A stretch of DNA of 63,330 nucleotides, the filler included, from Collodictyon triciliatum (lineage: Eukaryota): the NCBI GenBank assembly GCA_043381765.1. It is 8 parts of 8 records of this genome, joined end to end, with 100 filler letters (N's around TTAATTAATTAA, not from the genome) between each part and the next. Parts side by side here need not be neighbours in the genome. Positions count along the whole stretch, not along the records: positions 1 to 8,408 come from JBHJMP010003440.1; 7 more parts are not named here. The stretch is one strand, 5' to 3'. The translations under genes and the position numbers were made by a program. Shown here in pieces: positions 2,487 through 51,229 of the stretch (position 1 is the first letter of the stretch; each line of letters opens with the position of its first letter). The notes under the pieces were generated by a model. That model ran no database searches. It saw only the letters and a list, made by a program, of their open reading frames with translations, and had not been told where the DNA came from.

Positions 2487-4524
2487 ATGTCAAAATAAAA
2501 AAATTTGAAATGCGAAGGGTCGCGGAAAAAAAAAAAAAAAAAAAAAAGCTGAAAGAATCATACGAGAAAATGCATGATACTGATAGAGAAGAAAAGGAAA
2601 AAGAGGCAAAACTCAAGAATGAGAATAAAATGCCCTACAGTAGAAAGTTAACATAGATATGTTGCGCATAAATTGCTTCATACTGAATAAAAAAGCTTTT
2701 ATAGTCATTTTGGAACTGGCCCTCGGAACGAGAGACAATCAAAGAGATGTGGTGCAGACATGAGAACATGACCTCGGGGCTCGATGATGTAGACATGATT
2801 GTGATAAGGGGGTCTATTATTTATTTACAAGCACATATTTAAAATGGAGATTGCGACAATTTATCTCGTATTCTACAACACTGATTATTATTTTTTCTTT
2901 AAAAAAAATTCCGAAATAATACCAGAATCAATACGTGTTTGTAAATGTGTGATGGTCTTGATAAAAAAAAACCTCGAATTCGCTGATACACAGATTGGTG
3001 AACTTCGGGTATGTTCATGGTTATCTTCAAAAACAGATTGGTCACAGCCAATACAACAGCACTGTTGTTATGCTTGAACTTATCATCCAACAGATTCTGT
3101 AAATTATGTTAGGTGACGAATTATACGACGAGCCAAACCAGTAGCTACATCAATAGCAATGTGAAATCTTTTTCCAACATATTTATTCAAAAGAAATCAG
3201 TTTCACCATAATCTCAAAGATATCGTCCTCGTTGGCCGGACGATATTTGCTCAAAACTTCCAAAATCACAGCCTGGTTCCATTCGTTGAACTCTTTCATT
3301 TTGCCCAATAGTGCGACCACCTCATTGGGCTCCAAAATTAGCCCGCCTTCTGGAGCCATGATTTCCTCCAAGGCGCAGACACAATTGGCGACCACCTTTA
3401 TTTCATGGAAAGGATGATTTATGTGTGATGGAGTGAAGAGATAGATAATATTACATAGGTGAGCGACATGCTTTCGTATATAATAATGATTTCATACTTG
3501 GTATCTATTCATATTTTTATAAACTCATTCTTTATTTACTTTTTTTTTTCAAGGGAACGTCACAAAAAGGAGAGAAAAAGAAAAGCAACCTGGGCATCTC
3601 TATCACGTATCATGGAGCGCAAAGAGATGAGAAGCTCCGATTCAGCGCCTGCAGGTGAAAAGAAATGTAATGTATCTATATATCAGTAAGTCAAAGAATG
3701 TACAAATAATTATAGAGAAAAGGAAAAATGATAAAGAAGAGCCATGATCAAAAAAGAAGGCCAACCTTTAGCATGACTAAGTGGAGACAGCTGATGAAGC
3801 TTAGCCACACCAAGAACAGCAGTCTTTCTCACGTAGCCACTCGAATCACCAAGCCCTTTTCTCACCACTTCCACAATATACTCAAGAATGTTTGGAAGGC
3901 GCAGAGAACAAATGCTTCGAAGCGCAAGCGCACGAACCATTGGGTTTTCATCACGGCAGTCTTTTTGAAGCGTGTTGATCGCGAGAAGTGCAAGGTCAGC
4001 CTTAGACTCGGCATAGTTGCAGAGATACAGATATATCATTTTCTTTTGCACGATATCACGAGTGTTTGTAGCCTTCGTATGTATGTGAAATAGTAAGTCG
4101 TCTAGACTCGCAGCAGACTTTTCGATACAGTATGATCAAAAGAATCATGCTTAGAAGGCGAGCGGCTTGAAGGAAAATATAGAAATAAATGATAAAAATG
4201 AAGACATAATACATATGCAAATACTAATACAAATGAATTAAAAAATAAAGAAATATGTAATTAATAAAGAAATATATGGATTCTTTTGTCTTGATTGAAG
4301 GAAAGATGAGAAAGATTAGGTTAGACTCTGGACAGTACCATAACCATGTCCGTGAAGAGTCGAGAGACGTCGATTCCCATGGTCATGAAGGCCACAACCC
4401 TCTTGATCACCTCTCGGCGCTTCCCAAGCTCCTTTTCATTCAACACGGACTTCAGAAGCGCTTGCAACTGGGCAACTTCGCCACGATTTCTTTCCACAAA
4501 GTAGGTGACATCTCGGGCGGCCAT
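28..4524 (-). CDS. AP4B1: AP-4 adaptor complex beta subunit, multi-exon, 3' end runs off the window start
   Basis: GT-AG spliced exons give [102 protein letters not shown] and [12 protein letters not shown]. These are beta-adaptin trunk motifs with AP-4-type wording. Confidence 0.9.
130..233. repeat. (GAAAA)n microsatellite, representative of many simple repeats (e.g. 7510-7750, 8509-8627, 13427-13659, 25281-25406, 28778-29000, 33000-33158, 39012-39110, 58019-58089)
   Basis: Directly visible tandem units, mostly intronic or at contig ends. Confidence 0.95.
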
Positions 4525-4723
4525 TCTCACGGATCAACTATGATAACCGGACAGCGTTTTTGTTTCAATGAGCCGCTCTGGTCACTTTGATCAAGCCTCC
4601 CACAACAGGAAGAACCCTCGCGCTCAACTTGCGGCATGAAGCAGCGCTTTTAGGCACTTGTTGTCTCTGATTTTCTCTTGCGCTTTTGATTTATTCGTTT
4701 GGCGTGATAGTTTGGTGTTTCTT

Positions 4724-4880
4724 ACGTTTTAAAATTGGCGTTTTAATTTTCTGGCATTATAAATCCTGAAAGAGAATACCAGTCTTTCGAATGGTAAACT
4801 CGGTGCGCAAGTATCCAAGGTCTCACCACTTTTTTCACTATGGTCGTGTAGTGGTGAAGGCTGCCTGGAAAGACTCAACA
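4724..4880 (-). ncRNA. Putative Fanzor omega-RNA scaffold / element right end
   Basis: Directly 3' of the Fanzor ORF. Inverted repeats TCACCACT (4823-4830)/AGTGGTGA (4850-4857) and TACCA (4777-4781)/TGGTA (4792-4796), the latter closing a GAAA loop on the minus strand. Exact ends not determined. Confidence 0.55.
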
Positions 4881-6760
4881 ACTTTTTTTTTTTTTTTTTA
4901 GAGGAAGGTGCATGTTGCATATTTTGAAGAATGGAAAGAACTTTCTTGAGTATATTATTAGCGCTGTTAAAGTCCCTTGTCAAGAAAACACTTTGTTTGC
5001 TTTCTGACCGATTGCATTCTTTACACATGAGAGATCTAAACACGTTTTTTGTATTTCCTTTCAGTTTCGTTTATTCCAGTTCTTTTTCGCTGTTGCAGCA
5101 CATCTTGGAGGTTTTAATTCATTCACACTGTTTCGAAGCGTTTGGATTGTGTTTTTCGTAATCCTCTTCCGATTGTTGGCATAAAAAGTTTCATCTGACA
5201 TTTTCTGCTCCAGTCTCCACACGCCAGTATAACATCCTTGCCAAATGTCTTTCCGATTCGGTCCATAGATAATGGTTCACTCATTTTTGTATTAACATAC
5301 TATCTCCATCTCATCTTTCGAAAAGCACGTGTTCATAAAATATGAAAATTTTACTGGTATCTTGATTTCATAGATACATATTTTGAAATTTATCATAATT
5401 GACCACGCATAAATTATGTTTAATCAGCTCTGTCTCTAAATCGATTAAAGATACTCTTAATGTCTCAAACTGCCGATTCTCTTCAAAAGTCATGTGACAA
5501 AAGAAATAGCGCTTTGTAAATCTGTTTCCATGCATATCCCTGAAGCCTTGTACTTTTTTTTTTCTCGTGCAAAAGTATTTTGTGATTTTTAAGAGTTTGC
5601 GATCATGTCTTCTTTCGTGTGCCGTGTAAAGTAATTTCTTACCTGTCTCGCCCACCATGTAAACCATATTAAACTTGCCTGCGTCCACTCCAAGTATTTT
5701 TTTTTGTCGCTAATAAAGATAGCTGCTCTTCGGAATGTTCATCTATATAAATACATTCTTGGGTCTTTTGATGAAATTGGATTTTGGATTTGAAATACCT
5801 TTCTTTTCTAACAATCATGACACCGCCAAGCCGTATGTTTGTGTCATGTATTTAAAATTGTAATCCATTTGATGAAAGACCATCTTCTTCATTTCAAAAA
5901 ACTTATCCCATAGTATCTCTTTGCATCCTGATATATTCTTCAGTAATACTGTTTCCAGACAATACTAATAGATCTATCAAACATGCCGTACCTAGAGTAA
6001 TATGACATGGTATATTGGTAGTTCTTAAAGCGATTGGTTAAAACAGTTTGGCTCCAACGCCCCAAAAATGCGATTCATGTAAATCAGACATGGTATTGTA
6101 CTTATTTGAATTGACTTTGGCGTCATATTCGATAGCTTTTACAATATCGCTGGGAATGATATGATGCAAATGCGTTATAGCCCATCCTTTACATTGTTCC
6201 GGCATTTCGAGTTTCTTGAAGATGGCTTTTTTTTTAATTTCGTAACTCTGCCTTTTTTTAATATCTTCCGTAATATTCTCATCTTTAGGAGCTGTTTGAT
6301 TTATAAAGCGCAGTAGCCTCTTTACAAGATGTTCCTTAGTGTTATTATGATAAACTGTTAACATTTGCTTCGCCAAGTACGGTAATACATGAGACAGTCC
6401 AACCAACGGAATGCGTTCTTCTTGGGACAAAAGGAATCGAAAATCATTGAGATAAAAAGCCACCATGCCATCCCTCATTTCTGGTTTTTTTTTTTTTAAT
6501 CTTGCGGGTCTATCTTGTGAAACGATTCCGACTGTCTTTAGAGCGTACGAAAAAAACTTTTCATCGATTATTGGGACTTGTGATTTCAATATGTAGCATC
6601 TTGCAAACAGATAAGTGTTGGTAACCAAATTATGACACAATAAAACTGTATCGTTGATTTCGTAATAGTCATCGCATTCTTTACAATCGACTTTAGAGAT
6701 GTTTTTCACATTTCGATAGTCCGGTTTTACAGAATTTATATTCTCAGACTCAAGACATTT
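4880..6760 (-). pseudogene. Fanzor1-like (TnpB-derived) RNA-guided nuclease, intronless, disrupted by frameshifts and stops
   Basis: Joining frames gives YRNVKTSLKSIV..INDTVLLCHNLVTNTYLFARCYIL, KLF*PIALRTTNIPCHITL, LWDKFF..FKYMTQTYG, RuvC-I ILGVDAGKFNMVYM, LAYGDWS..FMPTIGRGLRK, RuvC-II NE(frameshift)KTSKMCC, Zn finger CKEC and RuvC-III TRDFNSANNIL. Confidence 0.88.
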
Positions 6761-8408
6761 TCTTTACCTGAAATTCTTTGTTTTACTTTTTCCTTTAGAA
6801 AACTACCGAGTTTTCAATTTTAATAAAACTTTAGTCAATCAGCCAATTGGTCGATTTAATAAAAACAACTGCACAAAATCAATTATGTAAAATTAAGCAT
6901 CTACCAAGACTCTCAAAATGTTGCATTGTGGCAAACAAACACACAAAGTTTTTTTTTTTACAAGTGATTTGAAACAAAACGCTGAGAGCCGATTCGACAA
7001 GTTCGAAATGATAGCCGTATAGCCATTGCGACTGAAAGTCAATATATCGGCCCCAAACAACATGATTACCGCCACAAGTGTGGATAGTATGCTTTTTTGA
7101 TATGCATGTTTGGTGGCAGGTTTACAGGCTGATTTCTGTCTGGGCCAAGACAAGGGCTTGTTTGTAATTTTTGAATTTTAATTTTAATAATGCATAAATG
7201 GGAAATATAATATAAATTAATTACAGGAATAGAATGAGATTATTATGTATTTTTAACCTTAGTATATATACTAGTCATTCTACTATTATATTATTCAGGT
7301 TATTCCATGGATTCATCAAAGCTCCTGCTTTCGTCAATCCAGATTTAATTCGATAGTTGTATGTGCAATAAATTGTTATCTGTAGGTACACTTTCGCTGT
7401 ATAAAAAGTGTTGTGCCTTGAAAGGGATAAAACCTACTTCGTCACAACTTCTGCCATGAATTTTATCCATTTACAGGCTGAATGAAACCAAAGAGAAATG
7501 AAAGGACAGAGGAAAAAGAAAAGAGAAAGAGAAAGAGAAAAGAGAAGAAAAAGAAAAAGAAAAAGAAAAAGAAAAAGAAAAAGAAAAGAGAAAAAGAAAA
7601 AAGAAAAGAGAAAAAGAAAAGAGAAAAAGAAAAGAGAAAAAGAAAAGAGAAAAAAGAGAAAAAAAAGAGAAAAAAAGAGAAAAAAAGAGAAAAAAAGAGA
7701 AAAAAGAGAAAAAAGAAAATAAAAGAAAATAAAAGAAAATAAAAGAAAATAAGAAAGATAAAAGACAGGATGAATGAATTATAGCAACGAATACTGAGCA
7801 TTATAATCATACTTATCTTGTCACCCGTGGGTCGCTGGCTTGAACCCAATAGGTCATTTTTTTTATTCCCCTTCATTATTATTATTGTTTGTTTGAAAGA
7901 GCTCGCTCCGTCTTCTTAGTAGGTTGTCGTACTCACAGGTCGGTGGCAGCCGGCGTCTTGATCGTCGGTGTGTCTCGGTGCATAACCTGTGTTGTAAGAG
8001 ATGTGGTAAAGTGTCCTTTTCGCTCTCTGCGTTGGCTGCGTCGGCTGCGTCGGCCTTCTCGTTTTGTGCACAATCAGTAGGCATTCATTGGCGCAAGGTT
8101 GTGGCGCCGGTCTCGTCCTTCACGGGATCCCTCTTTCCGGTCGCTTGCTTGTTTGTTTTTTCGGCTTCAGAATATGGCGGGTTGAAAGAAGAAGGAAAGA
8201 ACCTCAGTTTAATACTATTATTTTCTGGAGAATGTCTCCTTTTTTTTTCTCTCAGTTTGTTTATCGTTCTTCAGCCAAACTGACTTTTTCTTATTTTTGG
8301 TATTATTTTTTTTTTTTTTTTTGTTCCTCTCAACTCTGTCTCTCATTGTGTGATCGCTACATCTATTCACATTGTGAGATATATCGGCCTTTGGGAAAAT
8401 TCTTAACT

Positions 8409-8508
8409 NNNNNNNNNNNNNNNNNNNNNNNNNNNNNNNNNNNNNNNNNNNNTTAATTAATTAANNNNNNNNNNNNNNNNNNNNNNNNNNNNNNNNNNNN
8501 NNNNNNNN
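8409..8508. other. Artificial contig spacer; identical spacers at 16901-17000, 25407-25506, 33902-34001, 42390-42489, 50877-50976 and 59281-59380
   Basis: Each is exactly 44 N + TTAATTAATTAA (stops in all six frames) + 44 N. Most flanking contig ends are simple repeats and several genes are truncated there. Confidence 0.97.
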
Positions 8509-8654
8509 CAAATACAAATACAAATACAAATACAAATACAAATACAAATACAAATACAAATACAAATACAAATACAAATACAAATACAAATACAAATACA
8601 AATACAAATACAAATACAAATACAAATATATTTGTTCTTCTTTGTTGCAACAAC

Positions 8655-14048
<5,394 letters not shown>

Positions 14049-19800: not shown

Positions 19801-20364
19801 GATCAACGATACGATAGGTATTATCAGCGAGTTGCAACGGGATAAACTTATACTCTATATTTTTTGTTTTGCGCTTAGATTAACGATTTTCTGGAGACGT
19901 TATGGGTGCTCATTTAAAAGCTAGGTGAACACCCTTGGCAAATCCAAATCTATTATCCGGCATCATACGTGCAACCAAGAGAGAAACAATATATATAGAA
20001 ATCACATACCTCATCAGATAAACTCTATCATGAAGCTGCAAATACACTTCTAGAAGTCAAAACAAAAAAAGCCAATCAAAGGAATAGTACCTATTTATGT
20101 GAGCCCAATCAACGTTTCATCAGCAGATCCATTATTAGTTTAATTTTCTCCCAAAAGAAAAAAACAAAATAAAAACAAATAAAAACAAATAAAAAACACA
20201 TAAACAAATAAAAGGAAGGATGGACGGAAGACCTGAGTATGAGACATTTGGACTCCACTAGATAATAGGCAGAAAATGTCACAGGATGGAAGAGAGGAGA
20301 GGAGGAAGAGTTGAGCGCTGTTGAACAGACGAATTGCGCATTACCTTAGCAGACCAAAGCACGC

Positions 20365-20938
20365 TCACTCGCCCGGAGAGTCAGAGACAAAGTCTGCCGG
20401 GGCGCCCAAAGCCGAATGCACGAGACCCTCTGCAACACACACAGCGTGGACACAGTCGCCCTCGTGCGAGATGCTCAGAAGAACCCGGTCGATCCCGTGT
20501 CGCTGAAGATGCCCACGAGCAAACTCCCCGCTGAACCACACCACGGGGCGCAGCGGCCGCTCTGCCTCTGACTCCGATTCCATCTGCTGCGGCCTGTGCG
20601 GAATGCAGATTGCCGGGAACAGCAGGCCACACCCGCGGCGTCCGTGGCACGCCTTGAACACAGCCTCCTTGCTGGCCCACCTACCGCGCCCAAGGTCAAT
20701 AGCCACCCCACATGCGCCCAGACAGCCGCGAGAGAGGCAAAGCGCCCGGGGAACCGTACCTGGTGGCCAGAAAGCGGGCGGCTGGGGGCGGGCTCGGATC
20801 CGCAAGGAACTCGCGCAGCTCTGCGGGGTGCAGAATCCGGCCTGCCAGCCGCGAGTCCTGCAGCGCGCTGTTGCCCAGGAGGCGCGAGAAGCGCGAGATC
20901 AGCGTCACGTCCGTCCCGAGGCCGATGATTCCGCGCAT
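20365..20938 (-). CDS. Holo-[acyl-carrier-protein] synthase (AcpS/Ppt2-type phosphopantetheinyl transferase), one intron
   Basis: MRGIIGLGTDVTLISRF..RILHPAE..RFLATR|WASKEAVFKA..VLLSISHEGDCVHAVCVAE; GT-AG intron at about 20681-20759. Confidence 0.92.
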
Positions 20939-21143
20939 GGCCCTTTGTATCTTTTTTTTTTGTATTTCGTGGGGATTCGTTGCTGCTTCTGACAAAGGAG
21001 AGGGGCTTAGGTCGGTGGCTGTGTGGCCTTGAAAAAGGGAAGGGGCGTTCTAGTGATGCCAGATTGGGGATGAGAGCTCGGCAGGTACAGGGGGTGTTTT
21101 ATTGATACCAGATTGGGGATGAGGGCGGAAGACAAAGGGTGGC

Positions 21144-22205
21144 TCAGTTGAGCAGGGATTCGATGCGGAGCATATGAGCGCGGGAGGAGACGACGTGCGG
21201 GCTGCGTGAGTTGTGGTCGTGGCTGTGGCTGTGGCTGTGGCTGTGGTCGGAGGGTGTGTGGGGGCGGCGGGCGCGCTTTGCCAGGCGGCGCAGGTGGAAG
21301 AAGCGGTGTCTGCATGCGGCGTGGTCGGGCTGGGCAATGCGCGCGGCGAGGGCGGGCCAGTCGATGCGGTCGAGCAGGGCGGCCGGGGCGGCGGCGGGGT
21401 CGCCCGAGGAGCCCAGTGCGGCGTGCAGCAGCTGCGAGTCGCGGCGCGGGGTCCAGCGGAGGCGGGCCAGGCGTGGGGCCAGGACGCGGGTCCAGCGCTG
21501 GCAGCACTGGTCGGCCGTGCGGGGGGTCCTGTCGTCTGCGCGGGGGGTCCTGTCGTCTGCGTCTGCGGCGGCCGCCAGTAGCTGGTGCACGCGCTGCGCT
21601 ATCCGCTTCCACTGCCGCGCCCCGTACTGCCCCGCCGCCTGCGCCAGGCACTCGTCCTCCCGCGGCTGCCACACCCGGCTGCGCTTGCGCGAACGCCCGT
21701 CCTCCCACTCCATCAGCGCCGTCGGCGGCCGGGGCGGCGTCGCCTGAGGGGCCTCCGGTGCGCTCTGGTGCGGCGCAAAGTGCAGCACGCAGGAGGCTGC
21801 TGTTGCTGCCGCCGCAAACATGCCATTTGGGGATGCCCCGCCGCTCGCAATCTGCTCCTGCAGCTGCAGCGTCTGGAAGAGCGCCGTGCGCCGGTGCTGC
21901 TCGAATGCGCGGCAGAGCTCCGGCTGGTACTGCGTCCCTGTGGGCGGCCACGAGGTCAGTCGAGGCGAGGCAAGGCGAGGCGAGGTGCAGGGAGGTCCCA
22001 CACGAGGGGGCGGTGGGCGTGTTTGTTTGGCATGTTTGTTTGGCATGTTTGTGGGGCGGCTTCTGAGTCATGGGAGCGGCTCGATACCTTGGAAGACGAG
22101 GCGCTCCGGTGCTGCTGGGCCGTGGGCCGTGAAGGGCATCGGCTTGTTGCGGACGGGATCCCAGACAAAGACGCCTGATGGGAGGAGTGTGCTTGCGCAG
22201 GACAT
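21144..22205 (-). CDS. Myb-domain protein with two Myb/SANT repeats, one intron, GC-rich
   Basis: WQPREDECLAQAAGQYGARQWKRIA..RTADQCCQRWTRVLAPRL and WTPRRDSQLL..IDWPALA..CRHRFF. Probable first exon MSCASTLLPSG..RLVFQ; a 21-bp tandem duplication (DDRTPRA) lies inside repeat 1. Confidence 0.8.
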
Positions 22206-22711
22206 GCTGGGTGTGCGCCGTGGGGTGTGTCGACAACGGGGTTCTGAGGTCGGGTGGATGTCTGAGTGTGTCTTCTGGATGCGCGGGCTATGCAGCAGCC
22301 AGCAAAGTTATGTCGCTCTTTCGCCATGTCTCTTTTTTCTTATTTTTTTCTTTCTTGTGTTGCTACTGTCGAGATGGTGTTTCGAAGCGGGAATTGATTC
22401 GATGCGGTCTGAATGGTTCTTCGTCGTCTCTGTGTCTCTTTCTCGCTCGCTGCGCCAACAAGCCAAGCCTCATCCGATACAGCCCCATGCATCGCACACG
22501 CCTGTTCCACAGGGGGTTGGGCGGTTGGTGGATTTCTGGCGTGGGGTTGGTGAAGGAACTGGTGTCTGTGTGATGAAGCGTGCTGTTGTGATGGATTCTG
22601 GCCAGGCACCAATAAATAGGGGAAAAAATCCTAGTCTATTCGGGCTGCGTCGTTTATATACGTGCACAACGGGGGATAGAAGGCTCCTTGTATGGTAAAA
22701 GGGCTGTTGTT

Positions 22712-22870
22712 CGTCACGACACGTCACGACACGCACAGTTTTTTCGGAAATGACACAGAAGGTCGTGTGATGAGGTCACGTGACGACCACTTGTCGCATT
22801 TTGTTCTGTTTCTGGGGCGAGAATAGGAAGCCGGGCACGTGATTTCAGCCCCTTTGACGTCATGTGACGA
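22712..22870. promoter_or_regulatory. Cluster of E-box/CRE-like palindromes in a divergent intergenic region
   Basis: GTCACGTGAC 22775-22784, CACGTG 22836-22841, TGACGTCA 22855-22862 and repeated GTCACG half-sites; function inferred only. Confidence 0.35.
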
Positions 22871-23719
22871 CCTAGGTTGGAACTTTGCTACATATATAGA
22901 CCAATTCTTTGAAGAATGCGGCGCGTGCGCAGATAACGAATTTACCATAAATAGATAAGCCTGCTGCTTTTTTGCCAAAATAGGATGCTTAGACCGTGCA
23001 TGGAAATTGTTGGTGGCAGCTTTTTTCGGTTCAGCTTCCACTTACAGCAGAATGCTTGACCGTGTTACTTATTAAGTAACATCGTACCTTGGCTTTCCTA
23101 TATGCGAAAACCTCAACCACTTAAGGCTACTTACTCCATCCAAGCCATTGAAATGATTCTGGAAAATAAGCATAATTCACCCTAAGAATCACTGGTAGCT
23201 TTGAAAACACCTAAGTAATACATCTGCATCAATTGTATGTCCTATGTAATTAAAAATTAAAGTTAGAAGCCAGACGGGTGATTATTTTTCAAGAAATTCA
23301 TCAATTGCACAATATCCGTGTGTTTCCTCAGCGTCAATAGAACTTTTTTCCCTTAAATATGTTAAAGGTAGTTTCAGTGGTACTAAATACTATTATATAA
23401 TATAATATATCAAAAAATATAATAATTATATGCTTTAGATCGATATATATATTAGTTTTATTATTTCATACATAAAATCCAAAAATATAATAACATTTTG
23501 GTTCAAAATTCAAACATTCGAAAATACTAGATTGTGCAATTTGCCAGCACCAACCCGCTTGTGACACACCCAGACCATCCAAACAGCGCGAACCCAAGGC
23601 ATATAAGTGGCATATTTTTGCTTCCGTCCTTCCCTGCCAGGTACACAACAATAATATACCCGCTGTCACTCGCGCTCAAGAATCTTCAGGCAACCGTCCA
23701 CCAGCACAAGCAAAACACC

Positions 23720-24522
23720 ATGAGCACTCGCACGTTCAGCGGAATCGACCATCTCGACCGCCCATCCTCCCGCGTCCATGCCCCACCAGGTAAACCAGCG
23801 TCCAGTATCCACACATCCATCGATTCCAAACGTCTCAGGTTCCCCACTCTCTCTCGTCCTCATACTTATGACACACTTCACTGGAACGGCCATAATCCAA
23901 TATTCTTTCTCATCCTACAACCTAAGGTGGCCGCTCCTCCAATATATTCGGCACAGACCCAACGCCCTCTACGTCTGCCAACTCTGGCGCAACTTACACA
24001 CGGACAGTAGGCCGTGCTGCCAGCCCATACTCGTCCAACGCCTTCGGCTCAGACTCTGTTCCCACCCAAGCCCCAGCTCAGACATACGGCCGCCCCAGCA
24101 ACCGCAATGCGCAGTCTTCCTCTGCGAATATCTTTGGCACAGACGACACTTCGTCAGCAGCCACCGGGGCCCGCTCGTACTCTCGAACAGCTGCTGTGAA
24201 CGCTGCGTCCTCCAACATCTTTGGAGATTCTCAGGACTATGCACAGCCCCGCCTTTCCTCTCGAAATGCGCCATCCCAATCGGCTCCATTTGCCACGACA
24301 GAGAACTCGTCACTCGCTGCTTACAGCACTTCGTCATCATCCCAGTACCAGCGCGATGGACCTGCACAATCGCGACAGAATGGTTCCTCATTTGGCTCGG
24401 CGAAGGCGGATGAACCATACACGAGTTCGAAGGGTCCGGACTCGGCCAATGAGCCAAGACACGCCCGCACTAGTGTGCGCTGCCACCACCCACCCGGTGG
24501 TCGCTCACAAATCACCTTCTAG
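23720..24522 (+). CDS. Jupiter/HN1/SPIRAL1-like PGG-motif protein, one intron
   Basis: MSTRTFSGIDHLDRPSSRVHAPPG|GRSSNIFG, internal SSNIFG-type repeats and C-terminal RTSVRCHHPPGGRSQITF*; intron 23790-23926. Confidence 0.75.
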
Positions 24523-25506
24523 TTTGTGCATATCCTGGCTGTCCGCCCAGTTCTTCCACTCTCGTTTCTTCTTCTGCTGCATTCAAACCTCTCGACTGCT
24601 CATATTATGATGACTTTTTCCATCTAACTCCCTGTTACTCCATCTCACACATGGCCTTTCACTGGGGTTGTGACTCTCGCAAGCCCAAACCCTGATGAAC
24701 TAATCGGCGCATCCGGGGCCAATCGAACCACGAGTCCACAGCCGCGTGGGTAGGCGCCAGTAGCGTCCGCCCAGATGCTGTAGCCGGGTTCGAGCCACAG
24801 TGCTTGTTTGTACCATAGTGTTGAGAAGTGAAGTTCTTCCCTGAATAGGAGCGCCTATCTTCACGCTACCCAATCGACGAGTACGACAATATAAACCAAT
24901 CTTCAACCATACCAGCCTCGTTGCGCATAGTCGGTTGAAGACAAGCAAAGAAACACACTGCCAGAATCTGCGCTGCTGCTGTTACGCCCTTACCTACCGG
25001 ATTCTGAAATATTCCAAATAAGGTGTATTCAACTAAAACGGATTCTTTTTTGACTTTCACAACCACATTCAGTTGTTGACGCTCAACACTTTTTTTCCAT
25101 CATGCTTTCGTGTTTAAAATCTTTTTGCTGTTTATTCTCTTTTTTTTTTTTTTCGGTTTTGCTTTTTTTTTTATACTTTTTGCCGCACACGTCGACCTTC
25201 GGCGAGCCGGCTCAGCGGATCGCAAGAGAAACAACTTTCTGAAGGCTGTCGTGGGCCATGGGCGCTCTGTTCGGTTATATAATAAATGAAAATAAATGAA
25301 AATAAATGAAAATAAATGAAAATAAATGAAAATAAATGAAAATAAATGAAAATAAATGAAAATAAATGAAAATAAATGAAAATAAATGAAAATAAATGAA
25401 AATGAANNNNNNNNNNNNNNNNNNNNNNNNNNNNNNNNNNNNNNNNNNNNTTAATTAATTAANNNNNNNNNNNNNNNNNNNNNNNNNNNNNNNNNNNNNN
25501 NNNNNN

Positions 25507-26340: not shown

Positions 26341-26547
26341 TTTTTCTTCAGAACATAATGCTTCATTACCCTTTTTATTGATGGTATTAACTACTCGCAA
26401 ATGCCATTAGCAAGAATTTATAATATCTATTTCACGCACTAACCAGCCACGTGTGAGTTTTTTTTTTTTTTCCGAGCTGCTTGGTTCACAACACCTCAAT
26501 GCACTTTGTGCGCCCCAAATATCTTTTTGTCACTTTTTTTTTCTTTT

Positions 26548-26580
<33 letters not shown>

Positions 26581-26581
26581 C

Positions 26582-26617
<36 letters not shown>

Positions 26618-26836
26618 GTATCAGTTTTTCTCATACAAGAAAGTAATCTACTTGCCGAAGCCCATTATCATGTGTTTCAGTCGCCCGCCCGCCACCTCTC
26701 CCTCGAATCTTCATACTCTACTTTTCCTATGACTTTTATCCAGCAGATCCTCAAAACCAAAGGACAGCACCAACTTGCTCACTCGTGGACAAAGCCCATA
26801 GCCCGTCCAAACCGCCTGCGTCCTACTTCTGCTGTA

Positions 26837-29800
26837 ATGTCCGATCGGACTGCTCTTTTGGAAGAGCTGCGAAAAATTACTGGCGATCCTGATAACGAGA
26901 CTCTACGAAGCCGGTCAGCGCTGCACTTTGGATCCAAGGAGTTGACATCTGTTCCCCTAGGAGTATTTGAATTGGATCACTTAGTCGAATTATACCTCCA
27001 TTATAATCAGTTGTCGTCACTTCCACCAGAGATATCCCACTCAACAGGTCTCACAGAGCTCCGTGTATATGGCAATCCTGTAAGTGTATTCATATATTCA
27101 TTCTTTTTCCTCTTCATATCGCAATTATTGGCTGATAACGATTTTCGAAGATGGAAGAACTTCCCCCGCAGATCACAAAGCTCAAGAGTCTGCAGAAGCT
27201 GGACGTTGTTGACGGCAGTGGGAAGGTCAGCATAAGAAGAGCACCTCGCGACATCACAAACCTCCCATGTTGGACTAACAAATCCCACAACGAGAACGAA
27301 TATGTCAGAAAGCTGCAGTTGTACGAAGTTCCAGTATGTTTCCTTTTAAATATAATCAGGGAACCCTGCTTGCAATTTTGACTTTCATTCTGACTTTTCT
27401 TATATCTAAGGAGGACGATATGATGATTCCTGAATGGGTGCCTAGTGCGAGGCAAATAGACCTCCAATCACTCAATTTTTACGGCTTGAGCATATCAGTT
27501 CTTCCAACAATAATATCAAACCTTTCAAATCTAACTTTTCTCAGCATTAGTCGGAATAGGGTATATATTAAATCGCAAAGTAATTACATAAAGTTCACTT
27601 TGGAATGTACGGAAACTGACAAATTCATTTCTTTAGTTTGAAGTATTTCCCACTGTTATCTGCACAATAACAGCCATGGTTAAACTCGATATTTCTAATA
27701 ATCAGGTTAGCAAATAATGGTAATCACAATTATAATTTATTTTGTGTATAAAATTAGGCATAAATTTTAATAATTCATATTCCTATATTAAAATATAGAT
27801 ACTTTCTCTGCCAAAAAGCATATCAAACTTGACAAATCTCACATATCTCAGTGTTAGCCACAACAAGGTATATTATTATGACACAATAATTCAGAGAATA
27901 CTATATTTAAACTGTAAAATGTTTGCCTCATGTATGCACTTGCAGGTCATTAACATCCCTCTCTCCATATTGGATTTCACTTTGGTATATAGTTTTCTAC
28001 CATGCCTGACCTACGAGAGATGACACACCTCAAGAAACTTAACATGAAATACAACGCATATCCCCCACAAGTCCAACGATTCTTAGACTCTATCAATCTC
28101 TCTAATAGTGGTGAAATAAGCTTGTATGGTGGAGAAATTAGAGATATCCCAGAAGATCTGATATTGCTACCAACCAACTCTAAACTTGACGTTTCCAAAA
28201 ATCAGGTTTGTAAAATTATTATGAATAAATTTACGTGTGTAGAGACATAACCAACGTTCAGTCATACTAGAAACACTTTAGACGTAGATTTTTAACTTTT
28301 TGTTTGTTTTTCTTTTTAAAAAAAAAAGGTGTCTTCACTGCCAACAAACATATCAAACCTCACAAACCTCACATCCATAACTATAAGTCGTAGTAAGGTA
28401 TATAAATTTTCAAAAGACAGATAGTTAAAAAAAGTATACACAACTCCCTATTTCATAAATTTCTACGGATTGATCTACACGCACAATATAGTTTGATATT
28501 TTTCCGACAGCTGTGTGCGCATTGACTCTTGTAGCGTCCCTTGATGCTTCCAATAATCAGGTCCGCGACTGAATATTGTAGACCGCCAAACAAACAGACA
28601 AAAAGGAAGTTATACGGCGAATGAATTAAATGTTCTTTATTTATTTCGACTGAATTAAACTTCAAATCCAGATTTCATACATTCCTGATGCCATCGCAAA
28701 TCTTGTGAACCTGCAAAGGCTGGATTTATCGAACAACAAAGTCAGTTTCTACATTTTTTTCTTTTGTTTTGTTTTTTTTATTGGATTTTTATTGGGTTTT
28801 TTATTGGGTTTTTTTATTGGGTTTTTTTATTGGGGTTTTTATTGGGTTTTTTTATTGGGTTTTTTTATTGGGTTTTTTTATTGGGTTTTTTTATTGGGTT
28901 TTTTTATTGGGTTTTTTATTGGGTTTTTTATTGGGTTTTTTATTGGGTTTTTTATTGGGTTTTTTATTGGGTTTTTTATTGGGTTTTTTATTGGGTTTTT
29001 GCGAATCTAAGCTATGTGGAAATATTTACTAAAAAAAAAAAAAAATGAACTCACCTAATCATTCATAATCTAGATTGCCAACATTCCCGGAATAATTGGT
29101 ACGATTAAAAGCTTGCGAAGCGGACTCAATATTCAAGGAAATCCCATCAGAAATGTACCAGAAAATGTTATCCGAATCGGGTCTGAGGCAGTTTTCGACT
29201 TCTTAACTAGTTCCATGAGTGGTGTTGTGAAATGGACTCAAGGCAGACTCCTGCTGTTGGGCGAAGGAGAGGCAGGAAAAACAACCCTCACGAGGTCAAT
29301 AACACAAAAATATATCTTCTTCAAGAGCACAACAGATCTTGAAAGAAAGCGCACTGATGGTATTGCCCATGTTGATATCGATGAGTCAATGATGGGTGGA
29401 TTTTTCAGGACAAAGATATCGATGCGAATCTGGGATTTTGGAGGGCAAGATGAGTTCCAAGTAACACACCCGTTCTTTTTGTCATCAGGCGCTCTCGTTT
29501 TAATCTTATACAGACTCGACCAAACCAAGGAAAAGAATAACATAAGTCGTTGGGTAAAAATGCTGGATGATTTTGCGCCTGGCTCAAATATCATAATTGC
29601 TGGGACCCATAAAGATTGTCAAAACCCAGTATACAAGCAAGATATGCAAAAAGAAATCGAACGAATCAAGAAGCAAAACGAACAGAAAGCTAATGAAAAA
29701 GCTCGTCACATCTTCATCAACACGGAATTAAGAGTGAGCAGCAAGAGCGGGAAAAAAATACCCAAGTTGAAAAACGAGATATACGATGGAATGATGAAGC

Positions 29801-32800
29801 TTGATAACATGAACAAGGATGTTCCAAAAACGTATATTCATCTTAAAGATTACTTAGATTCAAAAAGCCAATCTACAAAGTACGAACGGATCCAAGACAC
29901 ATACAGCTTCGCCGAGAAGCAATTGGGTATGGACAGAAATGGATGCGAAAGTGCTCTAAAATTCCTCCATGACCTTGGCTCGGTCGTTTGGTATTCGTCT
30001 CTTGAAAATATCAAGGATATAATATTTTTAGACCCGCTCTTTCTCATCAACATATTTCGTTGTGTCTTTAGCTTCAAAGGCATCGGGAAGGAGGCGAGTG
30101 GTATCATTTTGTTGAGCAAGCTGAAAGACAAAATCAAACAAGAACTTTTCACTGAAATAGACGAACAAGTCTTTAACACAATCATCAAAATCTTTGACCA
30201 TTTCGGACTCGGGATTCAATTCAACAGAGAATGCATCGCCTTTCCCTCACTTATGGATGATTGCCACAATCTAAAGGCGTTGTGGAGTATAAAGCCAGAG
30301 TCGAACTGTATTGCAGAAACCTCTGTAGAAATAGTGACCAGTGGTCAAGTCCAGCTCTCTGATAAAAGCAACGTCATCATACAAGCACTTCGTTTGACAA
30401 AAGAGGCACAAACAGGCATCATGTATGACGACCAATTTTTCAGAGATGTGGCATTCATACACCTGAATGCTTCCTACAAAATTGGAACGGATGAAATTCA
30501 ACTGCTTCCTGGAAACGATTTGATTATTTTGTATCAAATCTATCAAAACAATATTTCAGTAAAGATTAGAAAATATGAAAATGAGGTAAATGAGAGTGAT
30601 AAAGTTGTGAGGATTTTCGATATCCTTTCAACCTTCATCAAAGAAATATCGTCAATCCGGCCAAATTTTGTTGAAGCGTATCGATTTGAATGCCCTGAAT
30701 GCAAGCATCACGACATATGTGGTTATATAGGAACTTCAGTAAAGATAGGCGATGCAGAATTGAAGGCATGTACCAATGGTCATCAACTAGAAGTAAGCAC
30801 AGTAAAGCAAGGGCGTGTTTACTTGGAGCAAGGTTTCCTTGTATCTTTTTTTAAAAAAAATAAATATAAAAAAAGAAGTTACATGACCACTATTCACAAT
30901 GTGTTTTCATGAATAATTACCTTTATGCGTTTTGCACTAAAGTTAAATAATTGCACAAATAATGTTGGTATATTTTTTTCATTCATTTACTTAGGAATTT
31001 CGAAGAGATTCGCCTCAGTGATGAGGGCAAAAAGAACAAAAAGATTACAATCTGTTGAAACGATTCTTGAGCTTAATTCAATCAATCAAGAGTTAAGGGA
31101 ACAATTCGTCGATGAAAAGATAGAACTGTCAGAGTATCTTGCCAAGGGAGCATATGGCCGAGTATACACAACGACACATTTGGGAAAGGTTGCTGTGGTA
31201 AAGATTCAAACCGTCCAGAAAACAAAGGAACAAACCATCAGTGAAGTAATACAATCGATCATTTTTGAAAGCAAGTATCTTTACGAATGCAAAGAATGTG
31301 AATATATAGTGAAGCTATTCGGTGTGTATCGCGAAGAGGACGACTTTTATATGATTATGGAGAATGCAGGTATTTCGTTGAAAACTATGTTAGAGAAGAA
31401 AAATATCAAGCCTGAATTACCCTACATAATTTCTTACTCAAGACAACTCTGCCAAGGTCTCATTTTCATGCATTCTAAAAATCTATACCATGAAGATTTG
31501 AAAGCCGATAATATTATGATTGTCGCTCAAACAGTTAAGATTGTAGATTTCGGAATAGTAAGCCGTCGTGGTGTTGATAAAGTCGGGTCCAGCTTACCCA
31601 CGAGATTTGGTGAATGGAAGCAAGGCGGAACTTCTAACTGGCAAGCACCAGAAATCCATGAAGTTTCTTGCAAACCATTTTATGATGGTGACCCCGGTAT
31701 GTATGGTGAGGATGAAATAAATATTGGTCATCGAGGAGAACCCAGCAATGTGTATGCGTTAGGGATGCTCGTTTGGTACATGTTTTCTGGTATAGAGCCT
31801 TTCCAAAACGAAGTACAACCGCAAAGTTTTGTCATAGCAGGCTTACGACCTGAAATACCGAATGAAACAACACGTGAGCTCAACCATCTTATTAAAGCAT
31901 GTTGGAAGCAAAACTACATGCTTCGGCCTTCTCTGAATCGAGTTTGTATATACCTAGATGAATTGAACTTGAATGAATTTAAAATATGTCAAAACAGAAT
32001 GGAAGAGTTACTTCCAATTAATTACGCTCCTCTAACTATCATGCACAAGGGAGAATTTGTGGAGTGGCTTCGAGAACATAAGTTTTCTCAATTGAGTGAT
32101 AAAATATCACAGCAACAATGGGGCATATTTGAAGAAATTCAAGACAAAATCAGTGAACAAAGTATGTTTGATATGTATCTTGTAACGCCGAGAGACATTT
32201 TAGCATTTGTTGAGCTATCAATGCAGGACATTGCGGAAGAAGGCGACTCCAATACCCTCAAAAAGAAAGTCAAGGAACTTAGTCATTATCAACTGGTATC
32301 TCATTTGCAGAAAAAGAAAGATGAAGTATCAAAAAGATTACTTGACAAAGTTAAAACCTTGAAGCTTGATGGGGCTTCAATATCTAAGATTGACCAACCA
32401 GATGTTCTCGCACTCTGCTCCCTTTCTGTCCAAGAAATTTCATTTGCATCTCAATTCATAAACGAGCACTTAGTGTCAGATGAAATTGAAACTCCCAAAT
32501 ATTCATGGAACTATGATGTAACTCAAGAATTGGATGAAATTGAGCATATGAATTTGCGATACATCCCTTATAATAATGGAATCCAATATGCAACCACGTT
32601 GTGGATGGGTGATATGAAGCTCTCTAAGATCCCTAGTTCCCTCAAGCATTTAAACCTCTTGAAGAAGCTTTACATTCATTCGAACGATGTATTGTTTTTT
32701 TCTTGTTTTTTTTTTGTTTCTTTTGTTTCTTTGGTTTTGTTTCTTTTGTTTTGTTTCTTTTGTTTTGTTTCTTTTGTTTTGTTTCTTTTGTTTTGTTTCT

Positions 32801-33715
32801 TTTGTTTTGTTTCTTTTGTTTTGTTTCTTTTGTTTTTGTGAGGTTTCTTCTAAATCTCACGTCAATATCATCTTTCTATCGGTTCTAACCCATCACTCAT
32901 TTACAGTTGACATCATTTCCAGAGCCATGCCTCGTTCTCACGAACTTGGTATTCTTAGACTTATCAAACAACAACGTATGTTTCTTCTTTTCCCTTCTTT
33001 GTATTGTTGTATTGTTGTATTGTTGTATTGTTGTATTGTTGTATTGTTGTATTGTTGTATTGTTGTATTGTTGTATTGTTGTATTGTTGTATTGTTGTAT
33101 TGTTGTATTGTTGTATTGTTGTATTGTTGTATTGTTGTATTGTTGTATTGTTGTATTGCTTTAAATAAATGGCAATTATAATTTCTCCCAGTTTAGCACG
33201 AATAGAATGTGTTAATAAGTAAATGAAAGGAATTAAATTACATTATCAGGCTTGAATTAACTTTATTCATCATTTCACCCTTTTCTCATGTGATGATGAG
33301 CAGGTGCCATCGATACCTGCTCAAATATCATGTTTGGTGGGTCTCACGGGCCTTAATATTTCTCAAAATCAGCTTTCATCAATTCCTCCGGAAGTGTCAC
33401 ACTTGACCAGTCTCGAAGTTTTTTGGATTTTCAAAAACCCGGTGAGTAAAATTTTATTTACTCTTTTTTCTTTTTCTTTTCTTAAGGCAAAGAAAAACTC
33501 ATAAAGACTAAGAAATGGTTTGATTATCATATGTGTAGGCTCGAGACCTTCCTGTTGAGATCACTTCCCTCACTCGACTCAGCCATTTGCGTATCCAAGA
33601 CCAAACAGGACAATCTACTACAAGGAGGGTGCCTCGTGGTATCACAGTTCTCCCTTGTTGGAGTGACTCAAGTAATCCAGATTATGAGCTTATTCGTGAA
33701 TTGGAGCTTTACTAG
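26837..33715 (+). CDS. Roco-family protein: LRR-Roc GTPase-COR-kinase-two SAM-like helical domains-LRR, 14 exons
   Basis: Exons 26837-27079, 27151-27333, 27411-27560, 27637-27705, 27799-27867, 27993-28205, 28329-28397, 28492-28560, 28672-28740, 29074-30832, 30995-32688, 32907-32975, 33304-33441 and 33539-33715. Roc: GEGEAGKTT, RTDGI, WDFGGQDEFQVTHPFFL, GTHKD. COR: LHDLGSVVWY..IFLDP. Kinase: AKGAYG, VVK, HEDLKADN, DFG, WQAPE. Confidence 0.93.
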
Positions 33716-51145: not shown

Positions 51146-51229
51146 TCCGCTCAACCGGAATCGAACCAGTGACCTTAGGATGACATGCAACGCTACAGTC
51201 CTCCGCTCTACCAACTGAGCTATGAGCGG
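51146..51229 (-). tRNA. tRNA-Tyr(GTA) with an 11-nt intron at the canonical 37/38 position
   Basis: CCGCTCA-TAGCTCAGTTGGTAGAGC-GGAGGACTGTAG[CGTTGCATGTC]ATCCTAAGGTC-ACTGGTTCGATTCCGGT-TGAGCGGA; 73+11 nt. Confidence 0.95.

Follow-up and report, generated by a model that had tools for sequence, protein, structure and literature searches.

Near the start of a 63,330-nt stretch of DNA from the eukaryote Collodictyon triciliatum (assembly GCA_043381765.1; eight parts of eight records joined by filler, hereafter the window), the minus strand carries pieces of a protein resembling Fanzor1 RNA-guided endonucleases. The question raised by this locus is what these pieces are the remains of and whether they can still yield a nuclease. 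Our answer is that positions 4847-6763 (minus strand) hold an old, inactive Fanzor1 copy that belongs to a family of repeated mobile elements, apparently without a transposase, in this genome, a reading to which we assign a probability of roughly 85%.

As a reference for the broken sequence we used P0001, an intact metagenomic protein of 648 aa. A frameshift-aware alignment, made with a purpose-written program, showed that the pseudogene at 4847-6763 is collinear with residues 4-642 of P0001, with 377 of 622 aligned codons identical. The frame is interrupted by at least 15 frameshifts and by six in-frame stops at 6040, 5817, 5302, 5125, 5073, and 4900. The count of frameshifts is a lower bound, and in the region 5100-5125 a direct reading of the sequence demands two frameshifts where the program took one. 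A tblastn search of the whole window with P0001 matched only this relic (E 1.4e-118 in frame -3, 6763-5066, and 4e-61 in frame -1, 6096-4867), the next match being low-complexity DNA at E 0.012, and none of the 846 high-scoring pairs obtained with 271 family proteins fell outside 4600-6900. The alignment is collinear throughout, with no intron-sized gap, which agrees with the original prediction of a decayed, intronless Fanzor1 gene. The accompanying statement that every recognised host gene in the window is spliced was too strong, as kinase/ROCO-type host genes have uninterrupted open reading frames (ORFs) of 1.7-1.9 kb, and the element had been drawn too far, to 4724, while homology ends near 4847, or at about 4800 if the C-terminal tail is counted. 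An intact nuclease-encoding ORF is missing from the window copy. The relic is a long-dead copy, and a functional Fanzor1 protein cannot come from it.

With an X written at every break, the read-through relic shares 56.7% identity with P0001 and 36-39% with everything else, including ORFs of giant-virus contigs. P0001 and a second protein of 648 aa, P0153, are intact relatives that are 57% (blastp) to 61% (aligned codons) identical to the relic. The longest open piece, of 241 aa, contains two mutually compensating frameshifts relative to P0001, near 6706 and 6666. In a collection of 5.8 billion proteins, P0001 was its one match among 822 candidates, and in a representative library of 1.84 billion it had 173 relatives at E ≤ 1e-3, 30 of them at ≤ 1e-10 and two at ≤ 1e-30. 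This piece also matched the Guillardia theta Fanzor1 (9cer) directly at E 7.8e-4.

The family of P0001 was assigned by three kinds of comparison. In a search of the PDB, P0001 matched GtFz1 from G. theta (E 2.1e-28), PpFz1 from Parasitella parasitica (2.7e-24), and SpuFz1 from Spizellomyces punctatus (3.7e-23), with no other real match. A full-length family profile of 52 sequences recovered the same three proteins at 9.3e-108 (PpFz1), 2.1e-107 (SpuFz1), and 2.3e-75 (GtFz1), the next being LaTranC at 5.5e-4. The AlphaFold model of P0001 (predicted local distance difference test, pLDDT, 86.3; predicted template-modelling score, pTM, 0.85) matched SpuFz1 in Foldseek at E 2.3e-27 with a template-modelling (TM) score of 0.73-0.79, whereas the best non-Fanzor1 chain reached a TM score of 0.33, the Mimivirus Fanzor2 (ApmFz2, 9b0l) ranked 18th with 0.22/0.29, TnpB ranked 37th, and Cas12 lay far below SpuFz1. 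A Fanzor2 identity was rejected, as neither P0001 nor the family profile gave a Fanzor2 sequence match at E ≤ 1 and the fold match was weak. All 120 relatives among the matches listed carry the precomputed accession PF26935.1. Sequence, family profile, and predicted fold all identify P0001 as a Fanzor1, and therefore the window holds a pseudogene of the Fanzor1 family.

Across the family, the catalytic residues of P0001 (D364, E555, and D604) are conserved. D364 and E447 are invariant in family alignments A1 and A2, as are R603 and D604 in A2. The Fanzor1 motif given by Bao and Jurka (PMC3627910), D-X(125,275)-[TS][TS]-X-X-C4 zinc finger-X(5,50)-RD, is present in P0001 as D364...T558 S559 K L C562xxC565...C587xxC590...R603 D604. 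In the relic, the codons of this motif are present but lie across shifted frames, and of the four zinc-ribbon cysteines conserved in the family three are kept and one is replaced. The motifs are held by stop-to-stop ORFs in the three minus-strand frames between about 6763 and 4847. Of the motifs originally listed, GVDAG (RuvC-I) and RDFNSA (RuvC-III) are still encoded and KTSLKSI is found in the ORF at 6586-6705; the LETEL glutamate is encoded too. The list of motifs in the original prediction held less well elsewhere: besides the missing cysteine, the relic version of KLF*PIALR is interrupted by a stop, and the RuvC-II glutamate codon ("NE"), on direct reading of the sequence, is legible solely in a brief stretch of third frame that two frameshifts enclose, right after a stop. 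After RuvC-I, about 34 residues are inserted in both P0001 (residues ~407-440) and the relic (window ~5480-5580) and are absent from the nine other sequences of A2; residues 426-437 of this loop are modelled with low confidence by AlphaFold.

The relic is one dead member of a resident multi-copy repeat family. Contigs from four public runs, of which small shares (0.05-0.12) were searched, were placed on 4300-7300 at a minimum likeness of 80%, giving 151, 79, 406, and 10 contigs. In the richest run, the 406 contigs fell into likeness classes of ≥99, 95-99, 90-95, and <90% with 32, 74, 150, and 150 members, respectively. Contig depth is near zero to the left of about 4805, where two contigs of run X1 break off at 4783. 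On the other side, cover extends past the ORF to at least 7256 (bridges at 6682-7098, 6795-7156, and 7108-7256), and the 5' edge was not found. The repeated unit is about 2.5 kb or slightly more. The upstream part of the unit, 6764-7256, has no recognisable coding content, and its two ORFs have no Pfam match. Farther upstream the sequence runs into a purine-rich microsatellite of some length, a pair of N gaps, and a (CAAATA)n array (7482-7760, 8410-8510, and 8510-8628), and these hamper any search for the 5' edge. Among the best 12 of 182 indel rows, eight lie within 11 bases of seven of the 15 frameshift sites, so that other copies read otherwise at at least seven of these sites, and at the 6040 stop most contigs do not agree with the window. 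It follows that many of the lesions are peculiar to the window copy. An isolated, horizontally acquired copy, as the original prediction implied, is not supported; instead there is a family (406 contigs in one run, 80-99% likeness) whose window member has no flanking viral gene. The suggestion that intact members might exist elsewhere was borne out in part, by the intact P0001 and P0153 in metagenomes and by the less-broken copies in the public runs.

The family appears to lack a transposase of its own. A hidden Markov model of 32 transposases from viral loci, together with tblastn, detected no transposase remnant near the relic. The sole match of this search in the window (5156-5323, E 5e-8) lies inside the Fanzor relic and came from one odd ORF of locus L057 (L057:6351-7190). 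This ORF, collected as a relative of the transposases, matches the relic as well and may be fused or mis-framed. No convincing terminal inverted repeat (TIR) surrounds the relic in the window: the only flanking inverted pair (15 nt, 87%, 4790-4804 with 6805-6819) is one of 36 pairs that good, and the contigs of other copies continue beyond it. No part of 4500-9000 recurs elsewhere in the window. These negative results uphold the earlier view that the copy in the window has neither transposase nor TIR and is non-autonomous.

The 3' end was compared with those of Fanzor1 genes in giant-virus loci, which are described below. At the 3' ends of the viral ORFs we found a two-tier stem in which 100% of 188 cells are paired (82.3% in shuffles), nine of 11 pairs have changed on both sides, and none of 500 shuffles was as good. 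At L010:9459-9518, and likewise in 17 other viral loci of alignment A5, a second hairpin and then the TIR come after this stem. The viral stem is probably the scaffold of a guide RNA. In alignment A3 a small hairpin of the relic, with a fold z-score of -1.82, stands opposite the viral stem; we take this as a hint, no more, that it may be the counterpart of the putative guide-RNA stem. The viral 3'-end and TIR DNA had no match longer than 12 nt in the flanks of the relic. A plus-strand 10-mer at ~4738-4747 that resembles the core of the viral TIR was read as chance, since it is oriented the wrong way and falls beyond the edge of the repeat.

Several observations weigh against the reading of the relic as a dead copy of a transposase-less Fanzor1 family. 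Pfam gave P0001 just a sub-threshold match to the Cas12f1-like TNB domain (E 0.11), and found no relevant family in the eight pieces of the relic. The hairpin of the relic matched the stem-only model R2 weakly (9.1 bits, E 3.9 window-wide, rank 18 of 33, behind AT-rich chance hits), and the covariance model R1 of the viral 3' end with its TIR had no minus-strand match at the relic, its best match in the window (E 0.33) being elsewhere. The contigs that define the repeat family are partly metagenomic, and with a floor of 80% likeness some of them may be from other organisms; a connection with the source sample is possible for one of the runs. Finally, "transposase-less" describes the family through a single copy, that in the window.

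Table 1. Features at and around the Fanzor1 relic, in window coordinates.
Feature	Position	Strand	Basis or remark
Likely first coding exon of a host AP-4-beta-like adaptin gene	4321-4524	-	ORF; presumed exon
Second zinc-ribbon pair (CKEC), RuvC-III (RDFNSA), and C-terminal tail	4729-5070	-	ORF and alignment to P0001
3' tail of the element, as far as the approximate repeat edge	4783-4846	-	Contig depth drops below ~4805; loose ends at 4783
Small 5-bp hairpin opposite the viral 3' stem (alignment A3)	4826-4859	-	Weak; stem-only model R2
Piece with RuvC-I (GVDAG) and the invariant family glutamate (LETEL)	5368-5709	-	Middle frame-shifted relative to P0001
Longest open piece, 241 aa, N-terminal half	6038-6763	-	P0001 at E 1.7e-65, 55% identity
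Upstream DNA common to other copies of the repeat family	6764-7256		Contig bridging; outer edge not found

Given that the nearest labelled relatives of the relic are on contigs of giant-virus metagenome-assembled genomes (GVMAG contigs; 37-38% identity), we asked where the family came from. With a 10-sequence profile, 427 of 484 candidate stretches in IMG/VR were found to encode relatives, many of them on GVMAG contigs of up to 289 kb. We built a tree from 271 pooled proteins, which were clustered at 62% identity into 66 representatives (205 near-duplicates were dropped) and joined by the relic to give 67 rows; it is a quick IQ-TREE run with a midpoint root, in which four of the 66 other rows are virus-labelled, most rows are unlabelled, and labelled eukaryotic Fanzor1 proteins are not included. 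In this tree the relic pairs with P0001 (Shimodaira-Hasegawa-like approximate likelihood ratio test, SH-aLRT, 100) on a stem of 0.62, and the pair lies inside a 20-row clade (SH-aLRT 97) that contains all four IMG/VR-labelled clusters. Contacts with giant viruses occur in other clades too: P0011 shares 100% identity with a GVMAG ORF, and P0143 has a relative at 44%. A scan of metagenome contigs added one distant locus, L081, at 21% identity.

The viral genes are parts of transposons. In L001 and L004, the Fanzor1 gene lies in a 3.3-kb unit with TIRs of 32-33 bp and a divergent transposase of the DDE_3/helix-turn-helix (IS630/Tc1-mariner) type alongside, among genes for mRNA capping enzyme, ribonucleotide reductase small subunit, HSP70, and SNF2-type helicases, and a transposase ORF of this type is present in 30 of the 81 loci. 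The Fanzor ORFs in L001 and L004 are richer in GC than their loci (L001:8001-9860, 48% against 34%; L004:8001-9788, 42% against 32%), which suggests a recent arrival of the element in those viruses. Because the labelled members of the clade sit in such giant-virus elements, an exchange of the Fanzor1 family with giant viruses at some time, in either direction, is likely. The placement of the relic and P0001 fits the published view that viruses spread Fanzors, which was proposed by Bao and Jurka (PMC3627910) and is also expressed in PMC10432273.

The alternative that survives best goes further and proposes that the family came into the host lineage with an IS630/Tc1-mariner-Fanzor1 element of a giant virus, shed both the transposase and the viral ends, and multiplied afterwards. 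The clade placement, the IMG/VR relatives, the organisation of L001 and L004, and the identity of P0011 to a viral ORF all speak for this scenario, as does the proposal of Bao and Jurka. However, the relic and P0001 stand on a long private stem, and the closest IMG/VR relative of P0001 is at most 47% identical. The lineage of P0001 itself was not found in IMG/VR, where a scan with P0001 alone gave 36 pattern hits and no confirmed relative and scans with P0087 and P0030 gave no relative. The few viral labels, the midpoint root, and the makeup of the tree also count against it, as do the flanks of the relic, which have no DNA likeness to viral ends and no trace of a transposase, and its GC content of 34.9%, which equals the host background. 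Furthermore, giant-virus bins of metagenome-assembled genomes can contain host DNA. We consider the viral derivation of the original prediction plausible but unproven, and entry by this particular route a tentative explanation that is rather less likely than not.

The remaining explanations are far less probable. The first of them, very unlikely in our judgement, is that the relic has been co-opted as promoter or 5' leader DNA of the adaptin gene downstream. The 3' end of the relic is ~260-320 bp upstream of the likely adaptin start codon (~4524), on the same strand, and the next adaptin exon, 3710-4135, matches Adaptin_N at E 3e-28; the exon before it, at 4321-4524, we take to be the first from its likeness to adaptin N-termini. 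This arrangement is a single case. Still less probable is an endogenous viral element, in which the relic would be part of an integrated fragment of a giant-virus genome and not a transposon copy. This would account for the nearest labelled relatives being on giant-virus contigs, but a blastx search of the whole window against 2471 ORFs of the 81 fetched loci found no viral gene near the relic and, outside it, just two short generic matches, at 18.6 kb and 53.2 kb. The flanks consist of host exons in place of a block of viral-type genes, the adaptin exon starting some 300 bp away, and the repeated unit is just ~2.5 kb or slightly more. Least probable of all is that the organism has an intact gene, with breaks that arose through errors of sequencing or assembly. 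Although N gaps and long homopolymer runs occur in the window, only two or three of the 15 frameshifts are at runs of ≥5 identical bases, so that homopolymer error cannot explain the pattern of the other 12-13 and the six stops. In addition, the terminal branch of the relic is 0.60 compared with 0.18 for P0001, and a metagenome contig spanning two of the frameshift sites agrees with 5537-5688 without a mismatch and with a single gap, though its run may have a connection with the source sample.

Having weighed these alternatives, we return to the relic as a dead copy of a transposase-less Fanzor1 family and ask what its intact members would do. It is established that intact Fanzor1 proteins cut double-stranded DNA under guidance of an omega RNA, dependent on a transposon-adjacent motif (TAM) and with a single RuvC site (PMC10432273; PMC10530073). 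Such RNA-guided, TAM-dependent cleavage is known for SpuFz1 and GtFz1 (PMC10432273), and the Mg ligands of SpuFz1 are D383, N385, E541, and D606 (PMC10432273; PMC10530073). By analogy, the intact protein of this family would be a TnpB-like nuclease of about 650 aa that would bind a guide RNA transcribed from the 3' end of the element and would cut double-stranded DNA beside a short TAM. The window copy, with its frame broken about 21 times and one zinc ligand lost, cannot give such a protein. For this family, the RNA-guided mechanism (from the literature), the mode of spread in the host, and any viral origin are inferences.

Over its full length, P0001 resembles SpuFz1 (8gkh, 9ceu), GtFz1 (9cer), and PpFz1 (9cf0) by sequence, profile, and predicted fold, and it conserves the D..E..D RuvC triad and the zinc ribbon of the solved enzymes, of which the relic keeps the RuvC-I and RuvC-III codons. 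Unlike the solved proteins, the window copy is dead and the lineage of P0001 and the relic has the extra loop of about 34 residues, and the identity of P0001 to them in structural alignments is only 18-20%. Fanzor2 and IS607-type TnpB (ApmFz2, 9b0l) have the RuvC and zinc-ribbon core in common with P0001 and are otherwise unlike it in sequence and fold. Among transposons, PGv-1, PUl-1, and the Fanzor-only PUl-4, compared here by their descriptions only (PMC3627910), have a Tc1/mariner architecture like that of L001 and L004. The window copy differs from such Tc1/mariner Fanzor1 elements of giant viruses and protists in that no mariner-type TIR, TA duplication, or transposase remnant was found with it; a mariner-type TIR, a TA duplication, and a DDE transposase are all present in L001 and L004. 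Fanzor-only derivatives of Tc1/mariner elements were described by Bao and Jurka in 2013 (PMC3627910). A further parallel is CMe-1A of Cyanidioschyzon merolae, which according to the same source is likewise an old multi-copy, Fanzor1-only family with copies ~80% like the consensus, some of them intact, and no transposase; its host and lineage differ from those of the family in the window.

Elsewhere in the window, we noted a ROCO-type gene (leucine-rich repeats, Roc/COR, and kinase) at 26411-32841, in which open stretches of 612 and 642 aa lie next to each other. A GC-rich block at 20000-25000 reaches 54-71% GC per kb at 20-23 and 24-25 kb in a window of ~37% GC; foreign origin of the insert, a compositional island, and misassembly are all possible explanations. 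It contains a Myb-domain ORF (21144-22067, minus strand; Myb_DNA-bind_6, E 3.6e-9). A tRNA-Thr (TGT) at 51146-51229, minus strand, is the sole Rfam/ARAGORN match in the window.

Taken alone, the relic matters little. Thousands of Fanzors are catalogued (3655 unique ones in PMC10530073) and dead copies are common, so that this is an ordinary relic of a known kind. Its value is that it points to a distinct Fanzor1 lineage, that of P0001 and its kin, with intact members in freshwater samples, and that it adds another host repeat family whose nearest labelled relatives are in giant-virus transposons, which fits the published idea that viruses ferry these genes. A bolder reading, which we regard as unlikely, is that the relic and P0001 represent an unsampled Fanzor1 lineage, marked by the long stem and the private loop, which left the Tc1/mariner elements of giant viruses, gained new ends, and, lacking its own transposase, multiplied in a freshwater eukaryote whose Rad51 and AP-4 genes suggest that it may be an animal or something closely related. 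On that reading, copies that have decayed less may still code for an active RNA-guided nuclease that is so far uncharacterised.

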